Made by a program: the position numbers and the translations under genes. A stretch of 63,886 nt of DNA, counting the filler, from Nanobdellota archaeon (GTDB lineage Archaea; Nanobdellota; Nanobdellia; Woesearchaeales; CAZZGN01), in assembly GCA_051819665.1 (NCBI GenBank). It is 4 parts of 4 records of this genome, joined end to end, with 100 filler letters (N's around TTAATTAATTAA, not from the genome) between each part and the next. Parts side by side here need not be neighbours in the genome. Positions count along the whole stretch, not along the records: positions 37,947 to 56,269 come from JBNJDG010000019.1; 3 more parts are not named here. One strand, written 5' to 3'. Shown piece by piece: positions 22,415 to 54,606 of this stretch (positions are counted from its first letter, which is position 1; each line of letters opens with the position of its first letter). The notes under the pieces were generated by a model that did no database searches, had not been told where the DNA came from, and worked only from the letters and a program-made list of their open reading frames with translations.

Positions 22415-22425
22415 ATATATCACAC

Positions 22426-27323: not shown

Positions 27324-27803
27324 TCATTCATTTACATTCGCGAAGACCTGCCCTCTCGCCGTATGGTTAAGGTCGGTCCTTTCATAAGACCATTCTAACT
27401 CAAGGTCCATCTTTGTCTTCCTGGTTCCTCCTGCCTCAAGGCCTGAACAGTCTGCAGAGATGGTATCAGTCTCCCCGTTGTTTATAGTGGTCTCACTGGA
27501 TATGTTCTCACAAACAGCATCTCCCTGGCTCTCATCCAGAGTGAGATTATTGATAACTATCTCTCTTCCCTTACTGTTCTGGATAACCAGGCTTACTGAT
27601 TCATCACCTGCATCCAATTGCCAATCCTGACAGTTGATACCGGACTCAATCTGGCATCTCTCAGGCACGAGCTTACCCGGACTCAAAACACCGAAATAAG
27701 CCAATGCACCGATTATCACTAATACTACAAGAATCGCCCAGCCATAAGTCATCAGAAACTCTAGCGCTGCCTGTCCTCTTTTATTTGAATTCATTAACAT
27801 CAC
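27324..27803 (-). CDS. Archaeal type IV pilin (probable major pilin)
   Basis: KRGQAALEFLMTYGWAILVVLVIIGALAYFGV, Glu at +5; exact start Met uncertain. Confidence 0.92.
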   Translation of the reverse strand: MMLMNSNKRGQAALEFLMTYGWAILVVLVIIGALAYFGVLSPGKLVPERCQIESGINCQDWQLDAGDESVSLVIQNSKGREIVINNLTLDESQGDAVCENISSETTINNGETDTISADCSGLEAGGTRKTKMDLELEWSYERTDLNHTARGQVFANVNE

Positions 27804-27861
27804 CTATCATACACTAATATACATTTTAGGGAACCACTAATATTTAAATATTTTGTTTTTT

Positions 27862-28893
27862 CTATATAAAACCAGAGAATACATACGATAGAACAGTCCT
27901 GAAGAACAGATACATGAGAACAGAAACACCTATGAATATAGGGATATACTTAACACCATCCTTCATATTCCCCTTCCTGATTATCGAAAGGATGAGTGAA
28001 GAGAAGAAAGAGATCACAGTGAGAGCACCCATCGAGAACATCCTGAAAGAAGCGGGATCTATGGATATATCTGAAAGGTCCATCATGGAAAAAGAAGAAC
28101 TCCCTGAGGAGGTAGCATTGGATATAGTTCCCCCTATCTCCTGAAGAACCAGAAGAAGATTATAAGAAAGGCCGAACAAGGCAGGAGCTATGATAAGGAC
28201 AATCGCCACGATGAAGATCACATAAGTCGTATTGGCAGCTGCCATCTCCTGTTTAAGTTCCTTGGTTTCCCTTATATCCTTCTCCACCTTATCTATGATA
28301 TAAGCTACATTACCTCCTCCTTTCATACCCTCAACGATCAGCTGGAATGATCTCTTCAATATGGGAGAATCATACTTTTCTGTAAACTCCATCAGGGCAT
28401 CCTTGACATCCTGACCCGTGACAACTCTCTTAGCAACAAGGCTTATCTCCTTAGCAAGTATGCCGAACTGAGGCTTTATCGCTCTCCACAAAGCCCTTTC
28501 AAAGGTCATCCCTCCCTTAAGATTCTCTGAAAGATAACGGAGAAAGTCCTCAAGGACCGCTTCCATATTCTTCGTCCTCCTATATATCTTGATATCAAGA
28601 TGGATATAAAGAAGCATCACAATAACAAACAACACTGCAGATTGTATAGCCACCCAGAACACGAAAGTAAGAAGCATGAAAAGTAGACTGTTGAGGTCCT
28701 GAATGTAGGGGAATATGAAACCGACAAGCGCAACACCTGTAACAAAAACACTGAACACGAAAAAGAAACCATACTGTCTGTAAGGAACCTCCTCATATCC
28801 TGCCTTAGCAAGATATCTCCTAAGTCTCGGCCTTATACTCTTGGGTATGAAGGCCTTACCGAACTCCCCCAAACTTATAAGATTATGACTCAT
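27862..28893 (-). CDS. Type IV pilus membrane platform protein (T2SSF, TadC/PilC-like)
   Basis: DFLRYLSENLKGGMTFERAL, FGILAKEI, GMKGGGN; multiple TM segments. Confidence 0.9.
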   Translation of the reverse strand: MSHNLISLGEFGKAFIPKSIRPRLRRYLAKAGYEEVPYRQYGFFFVFSVFVTGVALVGFIFPYIQDLNSLLFMLLTFVFWVAIQSAVLFVIVMLLYIHLDIKIYRRTKNMEAVLEDFLRYLSENLKGGMTFERALWRAIKPQFGILAKEISLVAKRVVTGQDVKDALMEFTEKYDSPILKRSFQLIVEGMKGGGNVAYIIDKVEKDIRETKELKQEMAAANTTYVIFIVAIVLIIAPALFGLSYNLLLVLQEIGGTISNATSSGSSSFSMMDLSDISIDPASFRMFSMGALTVISFFSSLILSIIRKGNMKDGVKYIPIFIGVSVLMYLFFRTVLSYVFSGFI

Positions 28894-29729
28894 AGGTTCA
28901 CCATCGGTCTCATTGATCTAAGCATCGCAAGGAAAAAGAACTGCATGACAGTAAGCAGGAACAATATCGCAAATATCACCGGCGGACCCATCGTAAGACC
29001 CATGAAACCGGCGATGACTATGAACATAGTGACTCCTAGAGAAGGCATAACTGTCGCAAGTACCATATACATCATCATGAACGCATTGAGCTTCTTTCCA
29101 TATTCCTTGATCTCTATGACCTGTTCCCTGGTTATCTGGCCAAGCACCTCTCTTAAAGCTATAGAGACGTCCACTCCAGTCTTGAGAGATGTTATTAGCT
29201 CTGTAAGTATCAGCTTGAAATACTTCGAGGGCGTGAGCTCTCTCGCTTCATTAAGAGCCTGCTCAATCGGCGTCCCTATCCTTATATTATCGACGATCTC
29301 CTTGAAATACTTAGCACATATACCATAACTCCTTGACGCATCGATAAGAGTATTATACAGAGGGATTCCCGAATCCAGCTTCACGAGGATATACCTGCCG
29401 GCAAAAAGCACCTCCTGGTTTATCTCCCTCTGCCTTCTCCTTATATGAACCTTAGGTGAATAAAGCACGAACATGAAAGTGAAAGAGAAAGATATAGTCA
29501 TGAAGACCAGCAGGGTCAAGAGCAAAGCCCCTTTGTCTTCCGGAAAAACAAGCTTATCCAGGACAAAGAAAAGCAGAACAGCGAACCCGAATGCAGCATA
29601 AGAAGAGAGGATGAAAGCCTTCTTTATGAAATCAACAGGCTTATCCGGCATATTAGCCATCCTTAATAACTTCTTTATCCATGGTATCCTTTTCAGGATC
29701 GCCTCATAAAACCTTTGCACTTCCCTCAC
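28890..29729 (-). CDS. Type IV pilus membrane platform protein (T2SSF, TadB-like)
   Basis: LDSGIPLYN, GTPIEQAL, TPSKYF, YGKKLN. Confidence 0.9.
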   Translation of the reverse strand: MREVQRFYEAILKRIPWIKKLLRMANMPDKPVDFIKKAFILSSYAAFGFAVLLFFVLDKLVFPEDKGALLLTLLVFMTISFSFTFMFVLYSPKVHIRRRQREINQEVLFAGRYILVKLDSGIPLYNTLIDASRSYGICAKYFKEIVDNIRIGTPIEQALNEARELTPSKYFKLILTELITSLKTGVDVSIALREVLGQITREQVIEIKEYGKKLNAFMMMYMVLATVMPSLGVTMFIVIAGFMGLTMGPPVIFAILFLLTVMQFFFLAMLRSMRPMVNL

Positions 29730-29736
29730 CAGAAAT

Positions 29737-31197
29737 TTATTGGTTCATTTTCTTGTTATAATACTTCCTGAACACTTTACCGACTTCGTTAACATCATTC
29801 ACATTATCCTTTACCAAAGCCTTGAGTATCTTGACTTTCTCATTTATGCTCTCTTCGATCTCCTCTTTCGACATGCCCGTATAAAGTTCAAGTGTATCAA
29901 GCAGCTGTTTAGGCTGGTTCTTCGTGACAAGTTCGTCCTTCCTCACATCAAGCTGCATAAGCACATTAGTATCCGCATTCGAAAGCACCTCGGCTATCTG
30001 TAAAGTTCTCCTCTTACCATTCCTCCGGTTCCTCGACTGCACAACTATAAGACCAAGAGAGGATATGGTCATCTTTGGCACCTCTATCGGCGGATTTATA
30101 AGCCTGTCCACGGTCTCCTTCACATTATTAGCGTGGAATGTGCCGTATACAGAATGACCTGTATGCATAGCTTCAAAGAGCACCTCAGCTTCTTCCTTCC
30201 TTCTTACCTCACCCATGAGTATACGATCGGGCCTCATCCTCAGGGAGTTAACAACAAGATCGAGCATTGATACTCCTCCCTTGCCTTCCGGATTAGGTTT
30301 CCTCGTTTCCAGCGGAACCCAGTGAAGCTCCTCCGGAAGCTTAAGCTCCCTCGTGTCCTCGATGGATATGATCCTCTGGTTATAAGGCATGAAAGCAGAA
30401 ACAACGTTGAGCATGGAAGTCTTTCCTGAACCAGTACCTCCTGACACCAGAACAGAAAGCTCATTCTCTACAGCAAGCCAGATCAGCGCAGCTCCGGGAT
30501 ATGAGATAGTCCCAGACTTCAGGAAATCTGTTATGGTCCAGGGTTTGGTGGCGAACTTTCTTATGGTAATGGTATTCCCCTTTGAAGATATCGGGTTAAG
30601 CGTCGCATTTACCCTGTCACCTGTAAGGAGATGGGCATCCATCAAAGGTTTCAGCATAGTTATCTCTTCACCTACATCACTGCCTATGACTGTAGCATAA
30701 TGCCTCACTCTCTTCTCCGAGGGAATAACTATGTTGGTTAACAGCCATCCGAATTTCTTATGATAAATCCTGACCGGCTCCTGTGCCCCATTTACAACAA
30801 TCTCCTCTATCCTATCATCATTGAGAAGGATCTCTATATCACCAAGGCCTATATTCTGCCTCAAAAGCTCATTGACAAGAAGGTCTGAAGTCCTCTGGTC
30901 CGTCTGCGGAAAATACTTCTTGATGAGTATTAGGATCTCCTCTTTGAATTTCTCCTTAATGTTATTCACTGAATTCTCATCCGAAAAGTTCACCGAACCC
31001 ATGTTAATCTGGGAAACGAACTCCTCCCTTATCTTATTCAGTATAACTTTTGTTGATCTGGTGATGTTCTTTATAGAAACATTATAATGGGCAAATCCCT
31101 CTTCATTGAGATAAATCTTCACGTCCACTATCTGCTTGTCAACATGGACCTTATAGGAATCAAGCATCTTTCCGGAGATCTCTTCATTCTTTATCAT
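29737..31197 (-). CDS. Type IV pilus assembly ATPase (CpaF/TadA/VirB11 family)
   Basis: GGTGSGKT, SIEDTREL, LRMRPDRI.MGEVR, TGH...TFHA. Confidence 0.95.
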   Translation of the reverse strand: MIKNEEISGKMLDSYKVHVDKQIVDVKIYLNEEGFAHYNVSIKNITRSTKVILNKIREEFVSQINMGSVNFSDENSVNNIKEKFKEEILILIKKYFPQTDQRTSDLLVNELLRQNIGLGDIEILLNDDRIEEIVVNGAQEPVRIYHKKFGWLLTNIVIPSEKRVRHYATVIGSDVGEEITMLKPLMDAHLLTGDRVNATLNPISSKGNTITIRKFATKPWTITDFLKSGTISYPGAALIWLAVENELSVLVSGGTGSGKTSMLNVVSAFMPYNQRIISIEDTRELKLPEELHWVPLETRKPNPEGKGGVSMLDLVVNSLRMRPDRILMGEVRRKEEAEVLFEAMHTGHSVYGTFHANNVKETVDRLINPPIEVPKMTISSLGLIVVQSRNRRNGKRRTLQIAEVLSNADTNVLMQLDVRKDELVTKNQPKQLLDTLELYTGMSKEEIEESINEKVKILKALVKDNVNDVNEVGKVFRKYYNKKMNQ

Positions 31198-33854
31198 GAT
31201 TCCCCTCCAAGCACCCTTACATAATTCCTGGAATCACTTTTTTCCGGAAGTATATTTGAAAGTCTCTTGAGATCAACCATTGCCGAGTCCTTATTCCCCT
31301 CTACAAACTCTGAAAATGCCCTTATAGCCTTTATCACAGCAAACTCCTTGTTGATCCCGGTAATCCTCCTGTCCCTCTTTATAGATTTTATCAGAGAGAA
31401 GAAATCATCATATCCACCTTCATATGCTTTCTCCAGCGCCAAGCAAAGCCTCTTCAGCATATAAGCCTTAGTGTTCTTCCCCTTCTTGAGGATCGAACCA
31501 CAAACATTCTCTGCACCTTTATAATCCCCGGAAAGAAGAAGAGAGACCGCTTCATCATAATCCAGATCACCATCTTCCGCATCAATCTCCCCTCCTTCAT
31601 CCCTCATGGACTCTGAATAGTCTTCAACACTCATGTTTTCAGGCTTCTTATCCGCTGCCTTGTCCGCATATTTCTCCACTTCCTGTTTTACGTGATGGAA
31701 AAGCATGTAATCTTCCTTGCATTCATCCCTAAGCTCATTATAGAGAGAGACTATCTCCTCAAGGAGCTCTTTGGTTGGAGAGACCTTAAGCCTTTTAGTC
31801 ATATGATATAGTTTCAATTCCTTCTTCACCTTGAGGACCTCCTTATAGAGTCCGTTATGCCTCTTGACAAAACCAACAGGTAGCTCGTTGAAGATCCTCA
31901 CCATATGATTGTAATTGATCTCAATCAGATCAAACTCTTTCTTCTGTATATGCTCATGCACCGAAACAAGTATCTTAAGTAAAGAATAATACTTCTTCTT
32001 CATCAGAGAACTTACATCCTTCAGGGTCTCATTGTTCATTGAAAGTGTTATATCCCGGTAAGCATCCAGGAGCCTCTGTTTTATGCTTATCTTCTCCTCC
32101 ATGAAACCTGTAGGCAAGGAGGAGTATAATGCCATAGCCTCCTTGTATATGTTCTTCGCAAGATCATACTCCTTCCGCGACATGTACTTTTTTATGGCCT
32201 CGAAGAGGGACTCTATCCTTGCCTTCTTCCTCTCGAACTCTTTCCTCGCATATTCTTTCCTGAGATGAGAGAGCCTCTTGGAGACCTGGAGGATCCTTGC
32301 CTCAAGGGAGTTCTTGTAGCTTATGAAACCTTCAGGAAGGCTGTCGAAGAGCTCATTTATAGTCTCCAGTTTCTTGAAAGCTTTCTCAAAAGAAGACTCC
32401 TTGGTGAGTTCATTGACTTCTTTGAGGAGAGAGATGATCTTCTTGTACTTCTGCCTGAAATCTTTCTCGTATTTCTTCTCTTTCAGCATCGCCAGTCTCT
32501 GGTAGACTGAGAAAAGGTTGTTCTGAAGCCTTATCTTCTCGCCTATGAAACCTTTCGGAAGTCCCGAGAATATCTCCTTCGCATTATGATATGCACTCTC
32601 AGCTTTCTCAATATCACCATTCTTTATGCTAGCAAGTATCTCCTTAAGGAGAAGGTTTATGTCATTCTTCCCTTTCTGGATCTGTTTAGTATACTGCAAT
32701 TTCTCATACTTCACAAGGAGGGAATGTATATCGATTATCTTATTCTCGATATCAAGTTTTTTGTCAAGGAACTTCTCAGGTATGGATTCGTATATCTCCT
32801 CTATCACCTTATAGTCCCTCTCGGCATCATCAAGCTCAGATGCCTTTATATTCTTCTTTATCCTCTCTATGAGTTCCTCTATCCTGTTTATCTTGGCCTG
32901 TAAAGAATCTGAACTTTTCTTTGTGACCTGCTGGGAGATGTCCTTATTCAGCTTGAGCAATGAATCATCAAGCTTTTCCTTACGGGACTTATACTCTTCA
33001 GGGAGCTTATTGTACTCACTCCTAATAGCAGAATATATCTTTTCTACCTTATCTATATCTCCTTTCTTGAGGTAATCATAGGCCTCTTTCATGAGCCTCT
33101 CATAATCCTCTGAACCATTTATGGTCAGATCAATCTCCTGTTTTTTCTTCTCCCCCTTATCTGAAGACTCTTTAGACTTTTCCTTACCCAAGGTCTCCTC
33201 CTGTTGTCTTCTCTTCCTTTCCTGTTCAGCTTTCAACGCTTCCTCCTTCCTCTTCCTCTCCCTCTCTTTCCTTTCCTGTTTAAGCTTCATGAATGGATCT
33301 TTCAGCTCATTATATATCTCATAAAGCTCTGAATTTATCTTCTTATAAGAGGCCTTCAGCCTGTCATACTCCTTCTTGGAAAGAAGGGTCTTCGCATGGG
33401 AGATCAGGTTAGCTACACCGTCAGTCCTCTGTTGAAGGGTAGAGAAATTGACCCTCTCGGCCAGTTCCTTATCATTACTTGCCTGGTTTATAAGCTCCTT
33501 GGTTTTTTTCTGTACTTCGTTAAGCTTCTTGTGCGTGTCCTCGTGCCTTTCGTTCTCAAGATTATCAGAGATTATAGCGAAAGCGGAACCTATCTCAGCA
33601 GAAACCTTACCCAGCTTGTTCATATTCACCTTATGCTGGCTCGTCTCAGGATTCTCAGAAACAAGATAAGGCGTCGTGAACTTATACTTTATAGAAAGCT
33701 CTCCTTCCTCCTCAAGGAATCTTGCCCAGGATTCAACTGTCTCAAAGGACTGCCCCAGCTCGATCGCTGCATCCTCGAAAGAGACTTCACCCTTGGACTT
33801 AACTATATTTATGAGATGATCAACATCAGTCCTCACCATGTCTTCAGCCGGCAT
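31194..33854 (-). CDS. Large helical-repeat protein with N-terminal wHTH-like domain
   Basis: TDVDHLINIVKSKGEVSF...VESWARFLEEEG; six repeats with LP..F...K; ATGA-coupled to the ATPase. Confidence 0.75.
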   Translation of the reverse strand: MPAEDMVRTDVDHLINIVKSKGEVSFEDAAIELGQSFETVESWARFLEEEGELSIKYKFTTPYLVSENPETSQHKVNMNKLGKVSAEIGSAFAIISDNLENERHEDTHKKLNEVQKKTKELINQASNDKELAERVNFSTLQQRTDGVANLISHAKTLLSKKEYDRLKASYKKINSELYEIYNELKDPFMKLKQERKERERKRKEEALKAEQERKRRQQEETLGKEKSKESSDKGEKKKQEIDLTINGSEDYERLMKEAYDYLKKGDIDKVEKIYSAIRSEYNKLPEEYKSRKEKLDDSLLKLNKDISQQVTKKSSDSLQAKINRIEELIERIKKNIKASELDDAERDYKVIEEIYESIPEKFLDKKLDIENKIIDIHSLLVKYEKLQYTKQIQKGKNDINLLLKEILASIKNGDIEKAESAYHNAKEIFSGLPKGFIGEKIRLQNNLFSVYQRLAMLKEKKYEKDFRQKYKKIISLLKEVNELTKESSFEKAFKKLETINELFDSLPEGFISYKNSLEARILQVSKRLSHLRKEYARKEFERKKARIESLFEAIKKYMSRKEYDLAKNIYKEAMALYSSLPTGFMEEKISIKQRLLDAYRDITLSMNNETLKDVSSLMKKKYYSLLKILVSVHEHIQKKEFDLIEINYNHMVRIFNELPVGFVKRHNGLYKEVLKVKKELKLYHMTKRLKVSPTKELLEEIVSLYNELRDECKEDYMLFHHVKQEVEKYADKAADKKPENMSVEDYSESMRDEGGEIDAEDGDLDYDEAVSLLLSGDYKGAENVCGSILKKGKNTKAYMLKRLCLALEKAYEGGYDDFFSLIKSIKRDRRITGINKEFAVIKAIRAFSEFVEGNKDSAMVDLKRLSNILPEKSDSRNYVRVLGGES

Positions 33855-33958
33855 ATTACTTTCATCCCTGATTTTATTTATAAAGTTTTTGCTGTGTGGT
33901 GACAAAAATGATACCACTTTTTGATAGGTATTTGTTTTTTCGCCTTATATGTTAAATC

Positions 33959-34984
33959 CTAAGAATACCTGTATTCACTGTTGTCTAGGTCAGTGAGATT
34001 ATAAACCTCAAAATGATAATCGTCTATCCTGAAAGGATATGTATCATTATTACCCTGGCCTGTATCATAATCTGAGGAGAATTCCTCCAACAACCAAAGG
34101 TCTTCATCACATCCCTCCGAAGTCTCATTGAAATAACAAAAGTCCACGAAGCTGTTATTATAGAATCCTCCCTGAGAACCGGTGGTCATGTTGAAATACT
34201 GGCTCGAATTAGCGAAAGAATGAATCCCGCAGCAATCAGAAGATGAAGTATCATTCACCAGCCTGTTCATATAAGAAGGTGATTCCTTATCATAGATATA
34301 AGTCCCATGCTCGACATGCCCTATGAAATGATCCTCATATTCATCATCCAGAGATTCACCCACCAACCAGGTCTGGTTTGCTGCCTTCCATATGGTCCTG
34401 TTGAGCCCGCCTGTATTGAGATTGAGGTAAAGGTCCCTATAACCGGGAATCAGTATCTCTGTCCTCACCTCATCATCGATGGTCCAGTTAGCATAATCAG
34501 CATCCACAAACGCCTCATAAGATACATTAACAGCAAACCCCCAAGGACCAGTCCTCTCGGATTGGTAAACCTCAAGATCATAAAAATCAAAGGTGGTATT
34601 TACCCTCAAAATATCATCCGACCAGTCAGTGAAATTCCCGAAGACTTTAACCAGGGAAAGATTATATACATCATCATTTCCATAAGTTCCATTGATCACC
34701 AGCTCTTCCATATGAGACTGGAATTCAGAGGCATTATCGAACTCTCCATCAGCTGATATCTCATTGATATAGTGCTCCATCCCTCTTTTACCAGCTACAT
34801 GAAGGGCCCTTTTAACATGGACCTCTTCTATATCACCCACATAATCACTCACAGCACCCATCCTCGATTCGATTACAGGAACCCTGTTAACATTAGTCAG
34901 ATAGGATCTGTACTGGAAAGTACCCACTAATACGGTCATGACAAGTATTGCGATGAATGTGAAGAATACAGCTTTCTTGTTCAT
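33959..34984 (-). CDS. Class III signal-peptide protein (minor pilin-like)
   Basis: MNKKAVFFTFIAILVM; many N-x-S/T sequons. Confidence 0.75.
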   Translation of the reverse strand: MNKKAVFFTFIAILVMTVLVGTFQYRSYLTNVNRVPVIESRMGAVSDYVGDIEEVHVKRALHVAGKRGMEHYINEISADGEFDNASEFQSHMEELVINGTYGNDDVYNLSLVKVFGNFTDWSDDILRVNTTFDFYDLEVYQSERTGPWGFAVNVSYEAFVDADYANWTIDDEVRTEILIPGYRDLYLNLNTGGLNRTIWKAANQTWLVGESLDDEYEDHFIGHVEHGTYIYDKESPSYMNRLVNDTSSSDCCGIHSFANSSQYFNMTTGSQGGFYNNSFVDFCYFNETSEGCDEDLWLLEEFSSDYDTGQGNNDTYPFRIDDYHFEVYNLTDLDNSEYRYS

Positions 34985-35508
34985 TTCCAGACATCCACCT
35001 CCAATGTCTCCACAACGAAACTGCGGTTTACGAAAGCAGAAGCTATCTTCTTTGAAGGGGTCACCAACTCAGAGTCATTGATAGGAGTGGTATTTGACCT
35101 GGAGAGGACAAAGGTCCTCGAATCATTCTTGAGTTTAACAGAATACGAAAACTTTTCGGAGACTGTCTCATTGACAAATTCATCAATCATATTACTGGCC
35201 ATCTCAGCACAATCAGGACACTCGCTCCCGTTCCTGTATGCGAATTCAACCAACTGCTCAGCTACAGTATTCCTCATATCCGTTATATTGCCATTGGACT
35301 TATACTTGGAGAGATATGTATAGTTCTGGTCATTTATCTCATATATCTGCGTTGAAGTCAGGAAGTCACTGAGATCCTCCGAATAAAAGATATTCTGCGG
35401 TTCATAAGGAGTGAAAGAATACTGGGCGATTATTATAGCTACCCCTACAACGACTACACTTACAGCTATAAACGCATCAATGGTCAAGAAATACCCTTTC
35501 TTTTTCAT
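34981..35508 (-). CDS. Class III signal-peptide protein (minor pilin-like)
   Basis: MKKKGYFLTIDAFIAV; C-terminal EVDVW. Confidence 0.78.
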   Translation of the reverse strand: MKKKGYFLTIDAFIAVSVVVVGVAIIIAQYSFTPYEPQNIFYSEDLSDFLTSTQIYEINDQNYTYLSKYKSNGNITDMRNTVAEQLVEFAYRNGSECPDCAEMASNMIDEFVNETVSEKFSYSVKLKNDSRTFVLSRSNTTPINDSELVTPSKKIASAFVNRSFVVETLEVDVWK

Positions 35509-42466: not shown

Positions 42467-43084
42467 TCATTCAAGCCTTTTCTTTATCATCTTCAGCCTG
42501 GAGAAGTTCTCCCTCTCCATCTCCTCAAGCCTCATAGTTATGTAAGTGACATCTTCCCTGAGCCTCGGAAGCATGACCCTCTCAAGAGCATTCACTTTCC
42601 TCTTCGTCTTCTTTATCTCTTCAGAGAGAAGCTCGACGGATTTCTCCATCTCTGCAAGCTTCAGAAGGTTCTTGAGAGCATTATTGAAGTTGGAGGCTGC
42701 AGTATCAAGCTGTGTGCTTGTGGAGATCATCGAATAAGAGGGATTATAATCCTCAAGCTCGATATCATACTGAGGCACCCTGACACCCATGACTGTCTTC
42801 CTGGTCTCTTTAACATCAGGTATCTCTTTCGCTGAATCAGCTGCCCTCTTGACCTCTTCAACACCATCAACAGCCTGGGCCATGATCAATGACCTGTAGG
42901 ATTCCTCAAGCTCCTTCTCCACTTCTTTCCTCTTCTTCTTGACCTTATCCACGAGAGTGAAGAACTCGCTGATAAGAGCGTCCCTCTTCTGTTTCAGGAG
43001 CTTGTGTCCCTTGCTTGCCAGTTTGATCTTCTTCTTCCTGGCAAGAAGTTCCATCCTTGTGGCTGCTTTCAGATCTGATGCCAT
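42467..43084 (-). CDS. atpD: A/V-type ATP synthase subunit D
   Basis: TRMELL, GHKLLKQKRDAL, TKRKVNALE. Confidence 0.96.
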   Translation of the reverse strand: MASDLKAATRMELLARKKKIKLASKGHKLLKQKRDALISEFFTLVDKVKKKRKEVEKELEESYRSLIMAQAVDGVEEVKRAADSAKEIPDVKETRKTVMGVRVPQYDIELEDYNPSYSMISTSTQLDTAASNFNNALKNLLKLAEMEKSVELLSEEIKKTKRKVNALERVMLPRLREDVTYITMRLEEMERENFSRLKMIKKRLE

Positions 43085-43086
43085 TT

Positions 43087-44463
43087 TTATTCCTCGTAAT
43101 ACTTGTCGATGTGTTTCTTTTTGAGCTTCTTGAGCTCATTCTTCGGAAGCTCCTTGAAAAGCTCCCAGCCGGTCTTGAGAGAGCTCTCGATGCCTCTCTC
43201 CTCATCATATCCCTGCTGGATGAAGGTCTTCTCAAACTGCTCAGAGAACTTGAGGAACTTCCTGTCCCTCTCAGAGAGAGCCTCTTCACCGACAACAGCT
43301 ACAAGGTCACGAAGATCCATGCCTTCAGCATAAGCCGTGTAGAGCTGGTTGGAGACACCAGAATGATCCTCTCTGGTCTTACCTTCGCCGATACCTTCAT
43401 TCATGAGCCTGGAGAGTGAAGGCAGCGGATTTATAGGAGGATAGATACCTTTCTGGTGGAGATCCTTCGTGACAACGATCTGTCCCTCCGTGATGTAACC
43501 TGTAAGGTCAGGGATAGGATGGGTTATGTCTCCCTGAGGCATCGTAAGGATAGGGATCTGTGTCACAGAACCTTTCCTGCCCTTTATCTTTCCTGCCCTC
43601 TCATAAACTGACGCAAGGTCCGTATACATGTATCCAGGGTAGCCTCTCCTGCCGGGGATCTCGTTCCTGGCAGCTGCAATCTCCCTCAGAGACTCACAAT
43701 AGTTGGTCATGTCAGTGAGTATGACGAGGATGTGCATATCATGCTCGAAAGCGAGGTATTCTGCAGTAGACAATGCTATCCTCGGCGTTATGACCCTCTC
43801 GATAGCAGGGTCCTCTGCAAGGTTCATGAAGCCGACCATGTTCTTCAGGGCTCCTGTCCTTTCGAAATCCTTCATGAAGAATCTAGATTCCTCATATGTG
43901 ATACCCATCGCTGCGAATACTACTGCAAACTTGCTCCCTTCTCCAAGTACTTTAGCCTGCCTCGCGATCTGAGCAGCAAGCTTGTTATGCGGGAGCCCTG
44001 CCTCACTGAACAGGGGAAGCTTCTGTCCCCTCACAAGAGTGTTCATCGTGTCTATCGTGGAAACTCCCGTCTGGATGAACTCCTCAGGGAACTCCCTTGA
44101 GGTCGGATTGATCGGAAGACCATTGATATCCTGCATCTTGTCAACTACAACATCAGGAAGTTTGTCTATGGGCCTTCCCAGACCATCGAAGATCCTTCCT
44201 ATCATATCCTTAGAGAGACCCACCTTCATCGTCTCTCCGGTGAACCTTATGGTCGTCTTCCCTGTATCAAGACCGCTCGTGCCTTCGAATACCTGGACTA
44301 CAGCAAGATCCTCTTTTGCTTCAAGGACCTGACCTGTCCTCTTCTTGTTATCTGAGCCAAGAACCTCGACGATCTCGTTATATGAGACGCCTTTGACTCC
44401 TTCCACAACTACCAGGGGACCTGAAATCTCCCTGATTGATGAATATTCAACTTTTTTACTCAT
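43087..44463 (-). CDS. atpB: A/V-type ATP synthase subunit B
   Basis: [45 protein letters not shown]. Confidence 0.97.
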
Positions 44464-46234
44464 CGAGACCACCCTTCAACTCTGAAAACTCATTCTTAAT
44501 CTCTTTCATTATCTCGTTTGCATGTTTCTCGAAAGTCTCGTTATCGTGTTCTTTCATCCTTCCGATACTCTCTTTCACTTTCATATCCGAGATAGATTTT
44601 ATTGATACTCCTTTCTTAAGGGCCTTCTCGCCCTCATCCATGAACTCAAGGATAACATCAAGCATCTCTTTCTGCTTCTTGACCGGGCAGAACGCATCCA
44701 CTTCATGGAAAGCATTCTGCTGGAGGAAGTCCTCCCTCAACATCTTGGTTACCTCAAGGATGAGCCTCTCATGTTCAGGCAGTGCATCAGGACCAACAAG
44801 CTGGACGATCTCCTGGAGCCTTTCCTCCTGCTGGAGAAGACCTATGGCCTTGTCCCTTCTCTCTCTCCAGTTTCCGCCTGCTGTCTTGGTGAACCAGTCA
44901 GTGACATCATCAAGATACAGCGAGTATGAAGAGAGCCAGTTGATAGCAGGGAAATGCCTTCTGGAAGCGAGGCTCTTATCGAGCGCCCAGAATACCTTAT
45001 TCACTCTCAGTGTATTCTGTGTCACCGGTTCGGAGAAATCCCCGCCAGGCGGGCTCACTGCTCCGATGATCGTGACCGAGCCTTCATCACCTGCAAGGGT
45101 CTCTACCCTGGATGATCTCTCATAGAACTGCGAAAGCCTTGTTGCAAGGTAAGCAGGATAACCCTCTTCACCGGGCATCTCTTCAAGCCTTCCTGAGATC
45201 TCTCTCATAGCTTCTGCCCATCTTGACGTCGAGTCTGCCATCAGAGCCACTGAATAACCCTGATCCCTGAAATACTCAGCTATTGTCACTCCTGTATATA
45301 CAGAAGCTTCCCTTGCCGCCACAGGCATGTTTGAAGTGTTAGCAATAATGATGGTCCTGTTAAGAAGCGGCTCTCCTGTCCTAGGATCCTTAAGGTTAGG
45401 GAAGGTCTTAAGTACATCAGTCATCTCGTTACCTCTCTCTCCGCATCCGATATAGACGATTATGTCAGCATCGCAATACTTTGCCAGTGACTGCTGAGCA
45501 ACTGTCTTTCCTGCTCCGAAAGGACCAGGGATTGCAGCTGATCCGCCTTTAGCGACAGGGTTGAAAGTATCGAGGATCCTCTGTCCCGTAACCAGAGGAA
45601 CTGTCGGGCCTTTCTTATCCGTAACAGGCCTCGGTTCCCTGACAGGCCATCTCTGAGCCATCTTTATCTCTTTTACTCCTTCCTCTGTCTTTATCTTGGC
45701 CACTACATCATCTACAGTATATTCTCCTTCTGAAACTATTGACTGCACTTTTCCTGAAACATTAGGAGGAGTCATTATCTTATGTTTTACAGTCGTGGTC
45801 TCATCAACCACACCGATTATGTTCCCCCCTTTCACTTCATCTCCAGTGCTTACATTAGGTTTGAAATTCCACTTCTTTTCCTTGTCGAGAGCATCAGCAT
45901 CAACACCCCTGTCGATGAAATCTCCTGATTTCTCCCTTATTATGTCAAGCGGTCTCAGGATACCGTCATATATGCTTGTAATAAGACCTGGTCCGAGCTC
46001 TACTGAGAGAGATTCTCCCGTAGCCTTGACTTCAGCTCCGGGACCTATGCCTGCAGTTTCCTCGTAGACCTGGATCGTCGCCTTGTCCTGTTCAAGCTCG
46101 ATAACCTCGCCGATAAGGTTCTCCTTACCGACCCTCACAAGCTCATACATCTTTACACCGGTCATTCCGCTAGCTTCTACAACCGGCCCTGCTATCTTGA
46201 CAACCGTTCCAGTAACATTCTTTTTCTTAACCAT
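44456..46234 (-). CDS. atpA: A/V-type ATP synthase catalytic subunit A
   Basis: [42 protein letters not shown]; no intein. Confidence 0.97.
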
Positions 46235-48113: not shown

Positions 48114-51100
48114 CTATAATATTCCTATTCCCAATAATATGAGTATTGAAACCAATAATCCGAAAATAGCATAAGTCTCAGGGATCACTGACAATACGAG
48201 TGACTTGCCCATCGACTTTGCTGACCTCAACAGAGCACCTATGCTGTTCGCTGAGACCAGACCCTGCCCGACTGCTGATATCGCGGAAAGTCCTATGGCA
48301 AGACCTACACCTATACCCCCTATTCCCTGTGTTATCGATATACCTGACTGGATAGTACCCATAAGACCCACACCCGTAAGCATCAGTATGGCCACGATTG
48401 TTCCATAAAGGGCCTGTGTCTCAGGAAGCACTGAGTAGAGTATCGATTTACCGAACATCTTCTCATTATCACTCACACTCGCCACACCTGAAGAGGAAGC
48501 GATTCCCTGTCCTATAGCCGAAAGTCCGGCCAATCCGACTGCAAGGCCTGCGCCTATGCCCACAAGACCTACTGATACATCAAGACCCGGAGCGAACTCT
48601 CCCAGGATGCCTCCTCCTATCAGGAGAAGAACCGCGACAAGGAAACCGTAAAGAGCCTGTGTCTCAGGAAGTACTGAAAAGAGTATGCCCTTACCGAACA
48701 TCTTGCTTTTCCTCGTAACTACAGATATCCCCGAACCGGATACTATACCCTGACCTATTGCCGAGACTGCCGAGAATCCGACTGCAAGAGCCGCACCCAC
48801 AGCAACCAAGGATACAGGAACGGTCAGGCCTGGCTTGAGGGTCCCTATAAGACCTCCGCCTACAAGCAGGAGGACTGATATCAGGAAACCATAAAGAGCC
48901 TGGGTTTCAGGAAGTACTGAGAATAATATGGATTTACCGAACATCTTGGAATTCTTTACTATACTACCAATCCCCGATGAAGAGGCAATACCCTGGCCGA
49001 ACGCACTTATGCCCGCAAGGCCTACTGCAAGGCCGACTCCCAATGCCAGTACACCTGTAGCATTAGTAAGGCCCATCTTTAATCCACCCATCAGGCCTGA
49101 ACCGATGAGGAGAAGCACCGCTATCAGGAAACCATAAAGAGCCTGGGTCTCAGGAAGCACTGAGAATAATATCGATTTACCGAAGGATTTCTCCTGCTCG
49201 GATGTGGCACCTATCCCTGAGGATGAGGCTATACCCTGACCGAGACCCGAGACAGCAGCAATGCCCACTGCAAGCGAAGAGCCGATGGCAATTATACCAG
49301 CTGCAGTATTTATGCCTGCCTGCACGCCTCCGATTATACCTCCGCCTATCATAATAAGAACAGATATGAGGAAACCATAAAGAGCCTGAGTCTCTGGAAG
49401 GACTGAAAATAATATAGATTTACCGAACATCTTCGGTTTTTTCATGGCCGCGCCAATACCAGAGGAAGAAGCTATACCCTGGCCGATAGCGCTTACTCCG
49501 GCAAGACCTACAGCAAGACCTGCACCGAGGGAAACAAGACCGAAAGATAAGTTCAAGTCAGCCTTGACAGCACCTATAAGGCCTCCGCCGACCATCAGGA
49601 GGATGGAGACAAGAAAGCCATAAAGAGCCTGCGTCTCAGGAAGGACTGAGAACAATATGGATTTACCGAACATCTTGGAATCCTCTGAAGCTGCCCTCAC
49701 ACCTGAAGCAGAAGCGATACCCTGACCTATAGCGCTCACCGCAGCCAGACCTACTGCCAATCCAGCACCTATGGCCACGACTCCCGCTGCTGCAGTCAAG
49801 CCAGACTGTGTCGTCCCTATAAGACCTCCGCCGACCATCAGGAGGATAGATATCAGGAAACCGTACAATGCCTGGGTCTGCGGGAGAACTGAAAAGAGGA
49901 GGGATTTACCGAACATCTTCGGGTTCTTGGTAACAGCACCTATGCTGCTGTTGATGACACTTCCCTGGCCAACTGCTGATATCCCTGCAAGTCCTACCGC
50001 AAGGCCCGCACCTACAGCGACGAGAGCCATCGGGATCGTAAGCCCTGCCTGTACGGCACCTATTATACCAGAGCCGATCATCAACAGGATTCCTATAAGG
50101 AAACCCATCAGTGCCTGCGTTTCAGGTATTATAGAGAAGATTATGCTCTTTCCGAACATCTCTTTCTTCTCCTTGGTCGCAGAGATACCGGATGCGGCTG
50201 ACATACCCTGACCTATAGCTGAGATGGCCGAGATACCCACCGCAAGGGATGAACCCAACCCTATTATTCCAATCGGTGTAGTGATCCCTGTCTTGACAGC
50301 ACCCAGTATTCCACCACCCACAAGCAGAAGGACTGCTATGAGGAAGCCGTATAAAGCCTGGGTCTCAGGAAGGACAGAGAATAATACAGATTTACCGAAA
50401 AGCTTGTCATCCTCTGCAACTGAAGAAATACCTGAGGAGCATGTGATGCCCTGACCAACTGCAGAGACTCCTGCAAGTCCTACTACAAGACCTGCTGAGA
50501 TAGCGAATATGCTTACCGGCATAGAGGTTATGGAAGAAGTCCCGCCAAGGACCCCAAAGCCAATAAGGATAAGGACCGAGATAATGAATCCGTATAAAGC
50601 CTGCGTCTCGGGGAGGACAGAGAATATTATGGATTTACCGAACACTTTACTCCGGTCAAGTACAGCGCCTATTCCACCTGCCGAAGCTATACCCTGGCCT
50701 ATAGCACTTATGCCTGCTATGCCTACTGCAAGGCCTGCGCCTACCGTGGCCCAGCCCATGATCATGCTCACATCAGCACCAGAACCTCCAAAGAGACCAG
50801 TGCCTATCATTATCAGGATGGAGATTATGAAACCGTATAAGGCCTGGGTCTCAGGAAGGACTGAGAATAATATGGATTTACCGAACATCTTCTTCTCTTC
50901 CGCAACCGCACCTATGCCGCCTGCCGAAGCTATACCCTGGCCTATAGCACTCACACCTGCTGCTCCTACCGCAACACCTGCTCCAAGAGCTCCGAGGCCC
51001 TGTGCAAGGGTTACCGGATCGCCTCCGCCGATCACTCCTGCACCGAGGAGTATGAGAATGGCAATAAGGAATCCATAGATCCCCTGTGTCTGTGGCAATG

Positions 51101-51416
51101 CCTGGAACAATAATGATGTTGAGAAATTCTTCGAGTTTTCTGAGACTGATTTAGCACCTGCAGCGCCGGTGATGCCTGCTCCAAAAGCAGAAGCAATGCC
51201 TGATGCACCCACAGCTATAGCTGCACCGATTATGGCCAGACTCGTTCCTGTCGGCTCGAAACCAAATATGCTTGCGCCGGACGAAGCCGCAGCAGCCGTC
51301 TGGTTGGCTGTCTCATTGAGAGTAGCGTTTATAGTATGTGTCCCCTTCTCAGAAAGGAGAGCAAAACTCTCTGATGCCTTCTGCTGTATCATCTCTACCT
51401 GCATTGGCCCTATCAT
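48114..51416 (-). CDS. atpK: A/V-type ATP synthase proteolipid K/c with 13 fused hairpins
   Basis: 13 ~80-aa repeats (SAIGQG ... FGKS..FSVLP[E/Q]TQALYGF); located between subunits I and E. Confidence 0.93.
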   Translation of the reverse strand: MIGPMQVEMIQQKASESFALLSEKGTHTINATLNETANQTAAAASSGASIFGFEPTGTSLAIIGAAIAVGASGIASAFGAGITGAAGAKSVSENSKNFSTSLLFQALPQTQGIYGFLIAILILLGAGVIGGGDPVTLAQGLGALGAGVAVGAAGVSAIGQGIASAGGIGAVAEEKKMFGKSILFSVLPETQALYGFIISILIMIGTGLFGGSGADVSMIMGWATVGAGLAVGIAGISAIGQGIASAGGIGAVLDRSKVFGKSIIFSVLPETQALYGFIISVLILIGFGVLGGTSSITSMPVSIFAISAGLVVGLAGVSAVGQGITCSSGISSVAEDDKLFGKSVLFSVLPETQALYGFLIAVLLLVGGGILGAVKTGITTPIGIIGLGSSLAVGISAISAIGQGMSAASGISATKEKKEMFGKSIIFSIIPETQALMGFLIGILLMIGSGIIGAVQAGLTIPMALVAVGAGLAVGLAGISAVGQGSVINSSIGAVTKNPKMFGKSLLFSVLPQTQALYGFLISILLMVGGGLIGTTQSGLTAAAGVVAIGAGLAVGLAAVSAIGQGIASASGVRAASEDSKMFGKSILFSVLPETQALYGFLVSILLMVGGGLIGAVKADLNLSFGLVSLGAGLAVGLAGVSAIGQGIASSSGIGAAMKKPKMFGKSILFSVLPETQALYGFLISVLIMIGGGIIGGVQAGINTAAGIIAIGSSLAVGIAAVSGLGQGIASSSGIGATSEQEKSFGKSILFSVLPETQALYGFLIAVLLLIGSGLMGGLKMGLTNATGVLALGVGLAVGLAGISAFGQGIASSSGIGSIVKNSKMFGKSILFSVLPETQALYGFLISVLLLVGGGLIGTLKPGLTVPVSLVAVGAALAVGFSAVSAIGQGIVSGSGISVVTRKSKMFGKGILFSVLPETQALYGFLVAVLLLIGGGILGEFAPGLDVSVGLVGIGAGLAVGLAGLSAIGQGIASSSGVASVSDNEKMFGKSILYSVLPETQALYGTIVAILMLTGVGLMGTIQSGISITQGIGGIGVGLAIGLSAISAVGQGLVSANSIGALLRSAKSMGKSLVLSVIPETYAIFGLLVSILILLGIGIL

Positions 51417-53359
51417 CTCTTCTGCACCTCTTCAGTATAAACTCTCTCTTCCCTGAAAGGCTCGAACCTGTCTCCTCCCCCTTCATAGAACTTCCCGAAG
51501 AACTCCACGAACTGGAGCCTTATCGAATGCACGAAACTTCCGAGTGCATTCATGGCGAAGGAGAACATATGACCGCCCAGGAACACAAGTATGCCCGCCA
51601 CAATCCCTACTCCATAGGGTATGGGCCAGAGAAGGTCAACAAGGAGATTGACCGTCATCGCTATACCTGCCGTGGACAGTGCGAGGGCGAAAAGCCTTGA
51701 ATAGGAGATCACATCACCCATGAAGCCGGTGATGTCAAGCAGCCCCAGAGGGCCTTTCATACCGACCACCATCACTACGCTGGCAATACCAAGTATCTTG
51801 CCTGTCATGTCCAATGCTCCCGAAATGGAAGGTATGTAAGACTGGAGGGCAAGAGCTGCCACCGCAAGCTGTATGGTCCACCATACGAGCCTCTCCGATA
51901 CGAATTTCTTGTACTGTTTCTTCCTGAAATCCTCAATCGCTCCGAGGATAAGGCCTATATTGACATGCACGAGGGCGACTATTATCGATATTATCAGGAA
52001 ATACAACGGCTCATTGAGCGGATCCTTCCAGATGGCAAGATCAGCTGTGTTAAGCCCTATGAGATATTTGGGCAGATCACCGAAATAAGAGCCCGTAAGG
52101 ATACCGAATATCATGGAGACTACGCCCATCCCGGCAATGATCGTGGTCATATCCTTGAGCCCCTTGTCGTATTTGCCGAAGAAAAGGCAAAGCAGAAGCC
52201 CCAGCAGGAAAAGACCGAGTCCGTAAATAAAATCAGTGAGCATGAAACCGGCAAAAAGGACGAACGCAGGACCTGTTATGAAAGTCGGGTCAAGATCCTT
52301 GTACCTCGGCGGGGAATAAAGCTCCGTGATGGTCTCGAGAGGCTTCAGCCATTTCTTGTTCTTCATCTTCACAGGCACCTGCTCATTACCTTCCTCAGCC
52401 TTCTCTGTGGTTATACCTATACCTTCTACGGATCTAAGGTCATCCAGCTTAGAGACAGGGACCCATCCCTGCATCATGAAGAAATCCGAGCTCTCTCTCA
52501 TATTATTTACAGCTTCTGATCTCTCCTTAACCAGTTCAAGCTCTTCCCTTAAAGCCACTGATCTTGCATATATGCCCTTCCGGACTTTCTTTATCTCTTT
52601 CAGAGCCTCCGACATCTCATCGTCACATTCAGAGACTTTTCTATCGAGATAGGCTTTAGCATCCTCTTCCCTGACATCAGGGATCTGTATGGAATGAAGC
52701 CCGTTATTCTTCATTATGAAATTAGCCTTATCTCTGGAATCATTGAATACCGCTACAGCCAGGATCCTGTACTTCTTATCATATTCTGCCGATTCGATAG
52801 CATAATCCCCTATCTCCGAATCGAGCTGCTCCTTCATCTCCTCAAATCTATGGGAAAGGATCGTGCCAGTGATAAAGGAAAGGTTCTCTATCTCATTAAC
52901 AGTCTTTATAGGTATCCCTAATGCTCCCAGCTGCTTTACGGCAGAGATCTTCTCCTTAAGCTGCTCCTTCCTCTCTTCAGCGGAAGTATACTTGGCCTCG
53001 AGGTCCAGAAGGGTCTTCTCATTCTTATCAAGGAATCCCTCGGCATCCTTCATGACCTCATCATCGGACATTGATTTAACTTCCTTCTTATCAGGAAGGT
53101 CAAAGCCGAACATCTTCTGGGAGAAAGTGAGCTTCATTGAAGGCATCTTCTGTATGTTCACCAACCGGCTCATCCGGAGAAGGCAGTCAGAAGTCTCCTT
53201 GTGTTTCTCACCCAGGTCAGCATGAGCTATATCAATATCCTGGGACTTCATGTCTATCAACTGCATGACCCCCTTCTTATGAAGATCAGAGATCACCCTG
53301 TCCCTGTCCTCCCTGAGTGCAAATATGTTTGTTTTAAGAATCGTTTCTGACCGCGACAT
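51413..53359 (-). CDS. atpI: A/V-type ATP synthase subunit I (a)
   Basis: QGWVP, DLDPT, DVISYSRLFAL (essential Arg), HSIRLQFVEFFGKFY. Confidence 0.95.
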   Translation of the reverse strand: MSRSETILKTNIFALREDRDRVISDLHKKGVMQLIDMKSQDIDIAHADLGEKHKETSDCLLRMSRLVNIQKMPSMKLTFSQKMFGFDLPDKKEVKSMSDDEVMKDAEGFLDKNEKTLLDLEAKYTSAEERKEQLKEKISAVKQLGALGIPIKTVNEIENLSFITGTILSHRFEEMKEQLDSEIGDYAIESAEYDKKYRILAVAVFNDSRDKANFIMKNNGLHSIQIPDVREEDAKAYLDRKVSECDDEMSEALKEIKKVRKGIYARSVALREELELVKERSEAVNNMRESSDFFMMQGWVPVSKLDDLRSVEGIGITTEKAEEGNEQVPVKMKNKKWLKPLETITELYSPPRYKDLDPTFITGPAFVLFAGFMLTDFIYGLGLFLLGLLLCLFFGKYDKGLKDMTTIIAGMGVVSMIFGILTGSYFGDLPKYLIGLNTADLAIWKDPLNEPLYFLIISIIVALVHVNIGLILGAIEDFRKKQYKKFVSERLVWWTIQLAVAALALQSYIPSISGALDMTGKILGIASVVMVVGMKGPLGLLDITGFMGDVISYSRLFALALSTAGIAMTVNLLVDLLWPIPYGVGIVAGILVFLGGHMFSFAMNALGSFVHSIRLQFVEFFGKFYEGGGDRFEPFREERVYTEEVQKR

Positions 53360-53363
53360 TTGT

Positions 53364-53672
53364 TCACCCTAATAATGCATCTATTGCTGCTTCCACGGCT
53401 TTCTCTTTATTCTTCTCAGCCTTTTTCTTTAATCCAGAGACTTCCTTTTCATTCTGGTCCTTTATCTCAGTCGTCCTTTGCCGGATATTCTTCTTCGCTG
53501 TCTCCATCTGCTCTTCACGGAAGGTCTTGGCCTTCTCACGGGCCTCCTTCATCATAGAATCAATCTTGCCTTCCTCTTTATCGATTATTTCCTGTGAATC
53601 TTTCTTAGCTTTCTCTACTTTCTCCCTGGCCTTCTGCTCTGCGTCTTTCAGCTCTTCTAGTTCCTGTTTCAT
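53364..53672 (-). CDS. atpH: A/V-type ATP synthase subunit H/G (peripheral stalk)
   Basis: Charged coiled coil LKDAEQKA...; first gene of the operon. Confidence 0.82.
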   Translation of the reverse strand: MKQELEELKDAEQKAREKVEKAKKDSQEIIDKEEGKIDSMMKEAREKAKTFREEQMETAKKNIRQRTTEIKDQNEKEVSGLKKKAEKNKEKAVEAAIDALLG

Positions 53673-53745: not shown

Positions 53746-54606
53746 TTAGATTTTCTTTGAGATAGACCAATTCATCAGGACCTCGGACATGGATTCCAAG
53801 GCCGCCTTTACCCTCACCTTATGATAACTATCAGACCCCTTGACCTCCTGGTAAGGGACATCATTAACCTTCTTAGTATATTCCAAAACATCGTCATAAT
53901 CGAACTTCTTCCCGAAAAGAGAATCCAGATGACCTATCACTTTCTCCGTCTTATCCATATACTTCTCTTCTGAAGAGGGTATCTCCTTCAGATGGTCGAC
54001 AAGCCTCTCGAGATCCTTAGATATGAAGCCTATATAATGGACTTCTATTATCTTATACTTGCTGGATTTATTATGGGTCAGCATACCTATGACAGATTTG
54101 CTTATATGCATATGGCTCCTGTCGATCTCCTCCTCATACCTCTCGATAAGCTCCCTGTTATAGTTCTTCATCATCACATAAAGGAGGTTCTTTATCTTCT
54201 TGATCATCGTCTTTAGGAGAGAGAAGGGATCATCCACCGTGAAAGAGCTCTCGCACATTATATGCTTTCCGTCAAACTCCACAAGCTCTACGCTCAGAAG
54301 CTTCTTCTGCAGCAGGAGCCTGGATATGTCAAGTTCTTTCTCGAGGTTTATAGAGAAAGACTTCAGAGGATTCACATAGCATGCCACTATAAGCTTGTTT
54401 ATGTTCTTCTGGTCCTTACTTGATATGTCAAGCTCTATCTGTTTAAGTTCTTTCTCTTTTATATCCGGACTGACCACCAGAGAACCATCATTGGACTGGG
54501 AGGTCTTCACCTTAGAACCCGAGTTGATCCCGAATTGCTTGCACCAGTTCGTGGGCAGGTAGACATAGAGCATACTGCCCGTCTTCTGCACATTACGTAT
54601 ATCCAT
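53746..54606 (-). CDS. AbrB-PhoU family regulator (archaeal phosphate-uptake regulator-like)
   Basis: RNVQKTGS...LP.NW AbrB N-terminus; EEEIDR and LERLVDH PhoU-like motifs. Confidence 0.82.
   Translation of the reverse strand: MDIRNVQKTGSMLYVYLPTNWCKQFGINSGSKVKTSQSNDGSLVVSPDIKEKELKQIELDISSKDQKNINKLIVACYVNPLKSFSINLEKELDISRLLLQKKLLSVELVEFDGKHIMCESSFTVDDPFSLLKTMIKKIKNLLYVMMKNYNRELIERYEEEIDRSHMHISKSVIGMLTHNKSSKYKIIEVHYIGFISKDLERLVDHLKEIPSSEEKYMDKTEKVIGHLDSLFGKKFDYDDVLEYTKKVNDVPYQEVKGSDSYHKVRVKAALESMSEVLMNWSISKKI

Follow-up and report, generated by a model that had tools for sequence, protein, structure and literature searches.

We analysed the gene atpK of a Nanobdellota archaeon of the order Woesearchaeales (GCA_051819665.1, here G000; 1.12 Mb, 96.2% complete), which encodes the membrane proteolipid of an A-type ATPase/synthase. 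The analysed stretch of 63,886 nucleotides (the window, to which the coordinates refer) consists of four contigs joined by N-padded spacers. The gene lies mid-contig (C19, 10168-13470 of 18323), in an operon with the order H-I-K-E-C-F-A-B-D. This order, read from the sequence in the original prediction, agrees with the Pfam and NCBIfam assignments, with the atpH match below the cut-off. The atpK ATG overlaps the atpI stop, and the atpK stop abuts the atpE start.

53364..53672, minus strand: atpH (peripheral stalk); weak, PF16999 and TIGR02926 both below cut-off
51413..53359, minus strand: atpI (subunit a); PF01496, conserved Arg motif
48114..51416, minus strand: atpK, 1100-aa (amino acid) proteolipid with 13 tandem c-hairpins and 11 complete predicted Na+-type sites; open reading frame (ORF), motif spacing, PF00137
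47571..48113, minus strand: atpE; PF01991
46522..47568, minus strand: atpC (rotor socket); PF01992
46236..46520, minus strand: atpF; PF01990
44456..46234, minus strand: atpA; PF00006, PRK04192 above cut-off
43087..44472, minus strand: atpB; PF00006, PRK04196 above cut-off
42467..43084, minus strand: atpD; PF01813
19164-19263, 37847-37946 and 56270-56369: spacers joining contigs C17, C18, C19 and C45

AtpK is identified as subunit K/c by PF00137, above the cut-off, and by its setting in an A-type operon with an Arg-bearing subunit a, whose essential Arg column is kept in 43/43 aligned AtpI rows. The 13 tandem hairpins claimed initially are borne out by 13 P[E/Q]T motifs spaced by 80-81 aa and by 13 PF00137 stretches in a hidden Markov model (HMM) scan (E 3e-209, 678 bits), the number expected of such a scan. 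Among themselves, the repeats are diverged, as stated at the outset, with 35-72% identity in protein and 60% on average in DNA; the longest exact internal repeat is 32 nt, and the linkers are short and variable, with no common motif. AtpK was also rightly called the only proteolipid of its operon, and it is the only one in the genome as well: tblastn yielded one match in the genome, and all 13 PF00137 matches are inside the atpK frame. No second c subunit accompanies the 13-hairpin chain in G000, as for the Methanopyrus-type monomeric rotor.

The 13-hairpin atpK is real and not a mis-assembly, as seven other genomes have intact 13-hairpin frames with position-matched repeats. The AtpK protein had matches in 150 of the order's 401 genomes (this tally includes four genomes flagged as unpublished, on which no claim rests), and 12, including G000, have a long AtpK. 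The other 11 are spread over 10 family codes and comprise the seven with intact frames, one with 12 hairpins, and three split at contig ends. The only genome of the same family as G000 (82% complete) has a single-hairpin AtpK. Repeat i of G000 was closest to repeat i in 5/5 Woesearchaeales genes tested (p <= 0.0016). Genome contigs were searched with an alignment profile; a single-protein query matched nothing there. Of the matching records, two are titled Methanosarcinales and the others Woesearchaeota, Nanoarchaeota or "archaeon"; one record is a single-cell genome. The titles Woesearchaeota and Nanoarchaeota of same-order genomes fit the DPANN-type small-genome host proposed earlier.

Additional evidence comes from contigs of four salt-lake RNA-library runs (one study), mostly at least 99% identical, which cover much of the operon with no joint inside atpK. 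Among the contig pieces listed, 8/12 hairpin junctions are bridged in order, junctions 9/8, 8/7, and 2/1 are unbridged, and 6/5 is borderline. Mis-assembly had been named as a danger to the claim; the matching frames of relatives and these contigs argue otherwise. Repeat collapse does occur in the family, as P0006, P0013, P0027, and P0263 are 13-mers minus exact multiples of 81 aa. Shorter hairpin counts in the clade are suspect for this reason.

Predicted sodium sites and silenced pairs

In E. hirae NtpK, the ion is bound by Glu139 and Gln110 of hairpin 2 and by Leu61, Thr64, and Gln65 of hairpin 1, while Tyr68 stabilises the Glu (passages of PMC2359735). The criterion for a Na+ c subunit, as worded in passages of 10.64898/2026.10.01.756066, is a helix-1 Gln/Glu plus E[STQ][STQ]xxY. 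The following parts of AtpK bear on the number of sites or flank the repeats.

51252..51416, minus strand: N-terminal tail of about 55 aa with three N-x-T sequons (NAT, NET, NQT); predicted local distance difference test (pLDDT) below 50 for residues 1-49
51030..51239, minus strand: hairpin 1, NtpK-type head with Gln109 in place of Glu and no helix-1 Gln, retaining T-Q-x-x-Y for site 2; aligns with E. hirae NtpK hairpin 1
50061..50270, minus strand: hairpin 5, Met437 for Tyr, apparent first half of the internal silenced site
49818..50027, minus strand: hairpin 6, Gln513 for Glu (codon CAG, 49878-49880), apparent second half of the internal silenced site
48117..48326, minus strand: hairpin 13, NtpK-type tail keeping Glu1080 and missing the Gln and Tyr donors; pattern of NtpK hairpin 2

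A full ligand set, shared by two neighbouring hairpins, is present at 11/13 AtpK junctions and agrees with the Na+ criterion. By its ligands, the AtpK ring has 11 complete predicted Na+ sites, not 13. The 13-to-1 seam is blank because neither the Glu nor the helix-1 Gln is present in hairpin 1, and the donors Gln and Tyr are missing from hairpin 13; site 6 is blank because Met437 and Gln513 are the two halves of one site. Eleven sites therefore predict 11/3 = 3.67 Na+ per ATP, with a predicted minimum of 141-170 mV at 50-60 kJ/mol. From the match of these ligands to E. hirae NtpK, we infer that AtpK is Na+-coupled. The Na+ signature initially reported (helix-1 Gln and E-T-Q-x-x-Y) thus holds at 11 sites and not on every hairpin, as hairpins 1, 5, 6, and 13 deviate. 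The N-terminal tail, possibly outside-facing and glycosylated, is found with 2-7 sequons in 10 of the 12 Woesearchaeales-type proteins checked; two have no tail.

The number of sites varies within the clade on a constant frame. Fifteen 13-hairpin chains carry 12 Glu (three chains), 11 (seven), 10 (four, two of them the same protein) or 9 (one), and 9, 10, 11 or 12 sites predict 3.0-4.0 Na+/ATP. The predicted minima at 60 kJ/mol are 207, 187, 170, and 155 mV, respectively. One locus, L024, has an additional, partly degraded site. It had been proposed that one chain fixes the ion/ATP ratio; the single-chain ring is retained, while the ratio is not set by the number of hairpins, since 13-hairpin relatives carry 9-12 sites.

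The silenced pairs are located at hairpins 5/6, at 9/10 or at both, with an additional pair at 8/9 in a single protein. In the 10-site form, the blanks follow a nearly three-fold spacing of 5-4-4. At 154 internal junctions of 13 clade proteins (out of 19 analysed, with collapsed duplicates and locus-derived rows left out), we counted 138 Tyr/Glu, 15 non-Tyr/Gln, one non-Tyr/Glu, and no Tyr/Gln combinations. These are given as counts with no p value, as the events are not independent. An earlier Fisher test of the paired changes was rejected for the same reason, and also because it included one false regular-expression match and redundant collapsed proteins.

With the diagnostic columns masked, the Met hairpins formed one group and the Gln hairpins another (Shimodaira-Hasegawa-like approximate likelihood ratio test, SH-aLRT, 94 and 81). 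The identities of the silenced hairpins to heads and tails were no higher than those of normal repeats. Together, the grouping and these ordinary identities suggest that the silenced pair arose as one de novo cassette, which would have been copied to a second position four hairpins away. An alternative origin of the silenced hairpins, as relic heads and tails of fused 5+4+4 units, was dropped, as the identities gave it no support; the approximately unbiased (AU) test did not reject it. A separate silenced pair (His..Ser, then Gln) is present in a Methanobacteriota-labelled 12-mer, a relative of which has none. We also observed in hairpin 4 (50346-50403) five substitutions common to contigs of two RNA-library runs, which could be a strain variant or a conversion tract.

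Predicted ring closure, origin and gene content

Among known systems, E. hirae NtpK (PDB 2BL2; two hairpins and one Na+ site per chain, K10 ring) is the best match in both sequence (E 2e-20) and structure. The two proteins share head and tail hairpins and the site geometry across neighbouring hairpins. In G000, however, eleven full-ligand hairpins stand between head and tail, most junctions carry a site, and the ring would need one chain of 13 hairpins and 11 sites, not ten chains. The top NCBIfam model for AtpK is that of Methanocaldococcus jannaschii and other Methanococcales (PRK06271), whose hairpin is triplicated (passages of PMC2359735); several copies of such a three-hairpin chain are needed for a ring.

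The precedent for 13 hairpins is Methanopyrus kandleri (Lolkema & Boekema 2003, as cited in passages of PMC2359735, PMC3639240, and 10.64898/2026.10.01.756066), whose AtpK (P0231, 1021 aa) is likewise one gene with 13 hairpins and Na+-type ligands, and is presumed to form a monomeric ring; P0021, which represents its cluster, is 48% identical to G000 AtpK. The relevant passages describe this rotor, from a hyperthermophile, only as deduced from sequence. M. kandleri differs from G000, in which Gln replaces Glu in hairpins 1 and 6, by having a Glu in 13/13 hairpins and neither head nor tail. G000 further differs by its NtpK-type head and tail, blank seam, internal silenced site, N-terminal tail, and small-genome DPANN host. 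As a separate observation, hairpins 6, 9, and 12 of P0231 have Arg for the E+2 Gln, so that three sites may be impaired, whereas PMC2359735 states in the passage concerned that all 13 hairpins have the full Na+ ligand set.

An AlphaFold model of AtpK built from a 48-sequence alignment consists of 13 regular hairpins (pLDDT 86.5, predicted template modelling score 0.86). A 101-sequence alignment was dropped for modelling, as its repeats collapsed out of register. Foldseek found no match of the model in PDB at E <= 0.001 (best 2bl2_A, 3.4e-3), and solved chains match at most a small part of it. The top VIA-align match, E. hirae NtpK 2bl2_A (Z 16.7, 1.6 Å, 152/156 residues), spans model residues 49 to 1097, and the match to 6m0r_C spans 47 to 1099. 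For a compact four-helix chain to reach from one end to the other, the two must be adjacent; the ends of AtpK are therefore predicted to lie side by side, and one chain would close into a ring. The suggestion that one chain may form the whole ring is thus supported by a confident model and by this indirect test. That 13 is prime also favours a single-chain ring. For comparison, the single-hairpin K ring of T. thermophilus has 12 chains per entry (132 chains, 11 entries).

In trees of AtpA, the long-AtpK Woesearchaeales operons form one clade (13 rows, support 100), apart from the single-hairpin H+-like, single-hairpin Na+-like, and two-hairpin operons of the order. Their sister group is Undinarchaeota in the AtpI tree (99) and in the AtpA+AtpI tree (97). 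In a weakly resolved tree of individual hairpins (234 rows, 79 columns), heads group with heads and tails with tails, while the middle repeats of Woesearchaeales are separate from those of Methanopyri (98). The repeats of G000 do not correspond by position to those of three Methanopyri genes (p 0.29-0.67); of ten position tests of other clade members against Methanopyri, two reached nominal significance. One clade comprising all Woesearchaeales operons was not rejected (AU p 0.16), and the patchy distribution suggests lateral spread of the operon within the order. One genome, G320, has both a long-AtpK and a single-hairpin (H+-like) operon. With L125, L128, and L129 (G030, G221, and G152), it makes up a set in which a Na+-like and an H+-like A-type ATPase operon occur together, in tandem in three of the genomes.

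In G000, a full rnfCDGEAB operon adjoins a gene for pyruvate:ferredoxin oxidoreductase (C1, 34557-42802). The genome also encodes three cation/proton antiporters, a membrane pyrophosphatase, and an [FeFe]-hydrogenase of group A6. The hydrogenase is encoded by a three-gene cluster (C3, 14407-18276). The pyrophosphatase has the motif GNTTAA, which we take to mark the K+-dependent type; the NCBIfam name leaves its ion unsettled. Searches of G000 for the complex I/Mbh large subunit and the decarboxylase beta subunit found none, and a rhodopsin search was run with no positive control. Within the order, RnfD-family matches were found in 49/401 genomes (39 full-length). With unpublished genomes removed, full RnfD is present in 5/12 long-AtpK, 13/21 two-hairpin, and 3/10 single-hairpin Na+-type genomes. 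In sum, 21/43 genomes with Na+-type AtpK have it, versus 1/~103 other AtpK-bearing genomes; the latter comparison was read by eye among kin that are not independent, with only a sample of the ~103 checked as H+-like.

Proposed rotor and competing explanations

AtpK probably encodes the entire membrane rotor ring as one protein. Our explanation as a whole, to which we assign a probability of about 0.75, is that of a single-chain, 13-hairpin Na+ rotor with 11 sites, amplified in Woesearchaeales and making ATP from a Na+ gradient. It stands on the observed anatomy, distribution, paired changes, and gene content, together with the predicted fold. One chain would fold, and remain monomeric in vivo, as the whole rotor of a Na+-translocating A1AO ATPase/synthase. 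Site k would take its Glu and helix-1 Gln from hairpin k and its Thr, Gln, and Tyr from hairpin k-1, as in NtpK. The gene would have grown, in the Woesearchaeales operon lineage, through amplification of the middle hairpin in a proteolipid of head-middle-tail design. With the whole ring in a single gene, individual sites could be silenced; the silenced pair may have arisen once and been placed, presumably by copying, at 5/6, 9/10 or both, giving 9-12 sites on a constant frame. In G000, the enzyme would most likely run towards synthesis, on the Na+ gradient of Rnf and the membrane pyrophosphatase during fermentation.

Several observations weigh against parts of this explanation. A single-sequence AlphaFold model was unusable (pLDDT 40.8), ring closure is read from the aligned range only, and many c-rings are already known to AlphaFold. 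The 15 paired changes are not independent events, because they are largely of one origin, and neither a head nor a tail origin of the silenced hairpins was rejected (AU p 0.33 and 0.53). The salt-lake contigs are no proof of transcription, as neighbouring non-operon genes are also covered. The number of sites has no visible relation to Rnf.

The main alternative in function is a one-chain ring in an enzyme that mostly spends ATP on pumping Na+ where the surroundings are salty, with silenced sites raising the gradient that can be pumped against. This is unlikely but has some weight, as a matching sequence comes from salt-lake runs (one study), G320 has an additional H+-like operon, and RnfD was undetected in 7/12 long-AtpK genomes, so that the direction of operation may differ among them. 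G000 itself, however, encodes both Rnf and the membrane pyrophosphatase, Rnf-ATP synthase coupling has been proposed in Woesearchaeota (PMC8421398, in passages that do not mention the c subunit), and an A1AO enzyme with a V-type c subunit has been shown to make ATP from 87-90 mV (passages of PMC9171764). A two-chain ring of 26 hairpins, with about 22 sites and about 7 Na+/ATP, appears improbable. A larger multi-copy ring is not absurd in itself: NtpK-type rings, those of the closest solved relative, have 20 hairpins (10 chains per entry), and the 4-, 6-, and 12-hairpin relatives divide 24 as well as 12. Yet the monomer model is confident, with its ends apparently adjacent, and the 3.0-4.0 Na+/ATP of a monomer agrees with the ratios of 3.3-4.3 inferred for A-type enzymes in passages of 10.64898/2026.10.01.756066.

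Amplification independent of Methanopyrus is favoured, not proven. Of the two routes originally left open, independent amplification or transfer, the trees and the position test point to the former, but AU tests do not reject a joint Woesearchaeales and Methanopyri clade (AtpA p 0.52, AtpI 0.13, AtpA+AtpI 0.08), and the constrained AtpA tree is even better by 1.2 log-likelihood units. A shared origin of the 13-hairpin gene, by transfer or common descent with repeats later homogenised in each lineage, could also explain why both have exactly 13 hairpins and why 2/13 position tests against Methanopyri are nominally significant. Still, we consider it rather unlikely, given that G000 repeats match by position those of Woesearchaeales genes and not those of Methanopyri, that M. 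kandleri has neither head nor tail and bears a Glu in each of its 13 hairpins, that the middle repeats split by lineage, and that the best AtpI and combined trees place Undinarchaeota as the sister. We give very little credence to cutting of the chain into short proteolipids after translation, or to a repeat count produced by assembly. No single RNA-run contig spans atpK, and collapse affects the four proteins named above; but collapse shortens genes and does not lengthen them, the 13 hairpins recur position by position in diverged genomes, one of them single-cell, the bridged junctions come from independent runs, and the linkers offer no common motif.

Novelty and the wider family

In the literature within our coverage, which omits most subscription journals, multi-hairpin AtpK is nowhere described for Woesearchaeota or other DPANN. 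Within that coverage, the earlier concern that such proteins might already be well described in this lineage is not borne out. The relevant passages of PMC2359735, PMC3639240, and 10.64898/2026.10.01.756066 (an October 2026 preprint) name 13 hairpins only for M. kandleri. The same preprint refers to "several multi-hairpin structures", and such genes may be shown in its Supplementary Fig. S2; passages of PMC10656485 discuss DPANN ATP synthases with no reference to the c-ring. New here are the internal paired silencing, the series of 9-12 sites on a frame of 13, the proposed single origin of the cassette, the collapse artefacts, and the Rnf context.

M. kandleri was the precedent named at the outset. 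AtpK is not a one-off, as proteolipids of 12 to 15 hairpins occur in several lineages. When 1.84 billion representatives were searched with a profile, 43 matches reached E <= 1e-30. A set of 82 homologues (605-1925 aa), from the top 8000 candidates scored, contains by HMM count 13 hairpins in 18 proteins, 12 in 16, 15 in 2, 6 in 35, and 8-11 in 11. The 18 with 13 hairpins comprise 12 of this clade (including the query) and six of the Methanopyri type. The 15-mers group with proteins labelled Asgard. At named loci in Undinarchaeota, Thermoplasmata, Thermococci-labelled, Hydrothermarchaeota, and Methanomicrobiales records, there are also proteolipids of 4, 5, 6, and 12 hairpins.

A tentative joint reading, which falls a little short of an even chance, is that recombination of a dead-site cassette steps Na+/ATP through 3.0, 3.33, 3.67, and 4.0, with several origins of whole-ring genes and convergent silencing. 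If so, placing the whole rotor in one gene would uncouple the number of ions from ring size: a two-hairpin dead-site cassette could be gained, copied or overwritten by recombination between repeats, leaving the 13-hairpin ring unchanged. Whole-ring genes would have arisen in Methanopyri (13), Woesearchaeales (13), Asgard (15), and Gracilibacteria (12), and as 12-mers in Undinarchaeota, Thermoplasmata, and Thermococci-labelled genomes, with internal silencing convergent in at least two whole-ring lineages. The salt-lake family with 9, 10, 11, and 12 predicted sites offers a natural series for studying single-chain closure of the c-ring and the dependence of the ATP-synthesis threshold on ion number, and a natural scaffold for site-by-site rotor experiments. 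Ring stoichiometry could also be read from genomes of uncultured DPANN archaea.

Several other proteins were noted in passing. Asgard-labelled P0074, P0078, P0083, P0239, P0240, P0244, and P0248 are 15-hairpin single-chain proteolipids with all Glu present and no Na+ ligands. P0079, P0080, P0081, P0082, and P0226 have 10-12 or more hairpins; P0079-P0081 (10-12 hairpins) are labelled Candidatus Gracilibacteria and contain near-identical internal blocks, so that assembly may affect their counts. In the Thermoplasmata group (L025, L027, L034, L037, and P0042-P0072), 6-hairpin AtpK often carries an N-terminal PKD domain, and 12-mers are built as 6+6, 6+3+3 or one run.

Elsewhere in the window, an AbrB/PhoU-like regulator gene (53746-54606, minus strand) lies upstream of atpH; such a gene also precedes several related ATPase operons, which differ in type. 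Judging by the ORF list and sequence motifs, 14127-16547 (minus strand) appears to encode a large protein that is anchored in the membrane and has a C-terminus like an M23 peptidase, and 20084-35508 (minus strand) a cluster resembling that of a type IV pilus, in which large secreted proteins are encoded.

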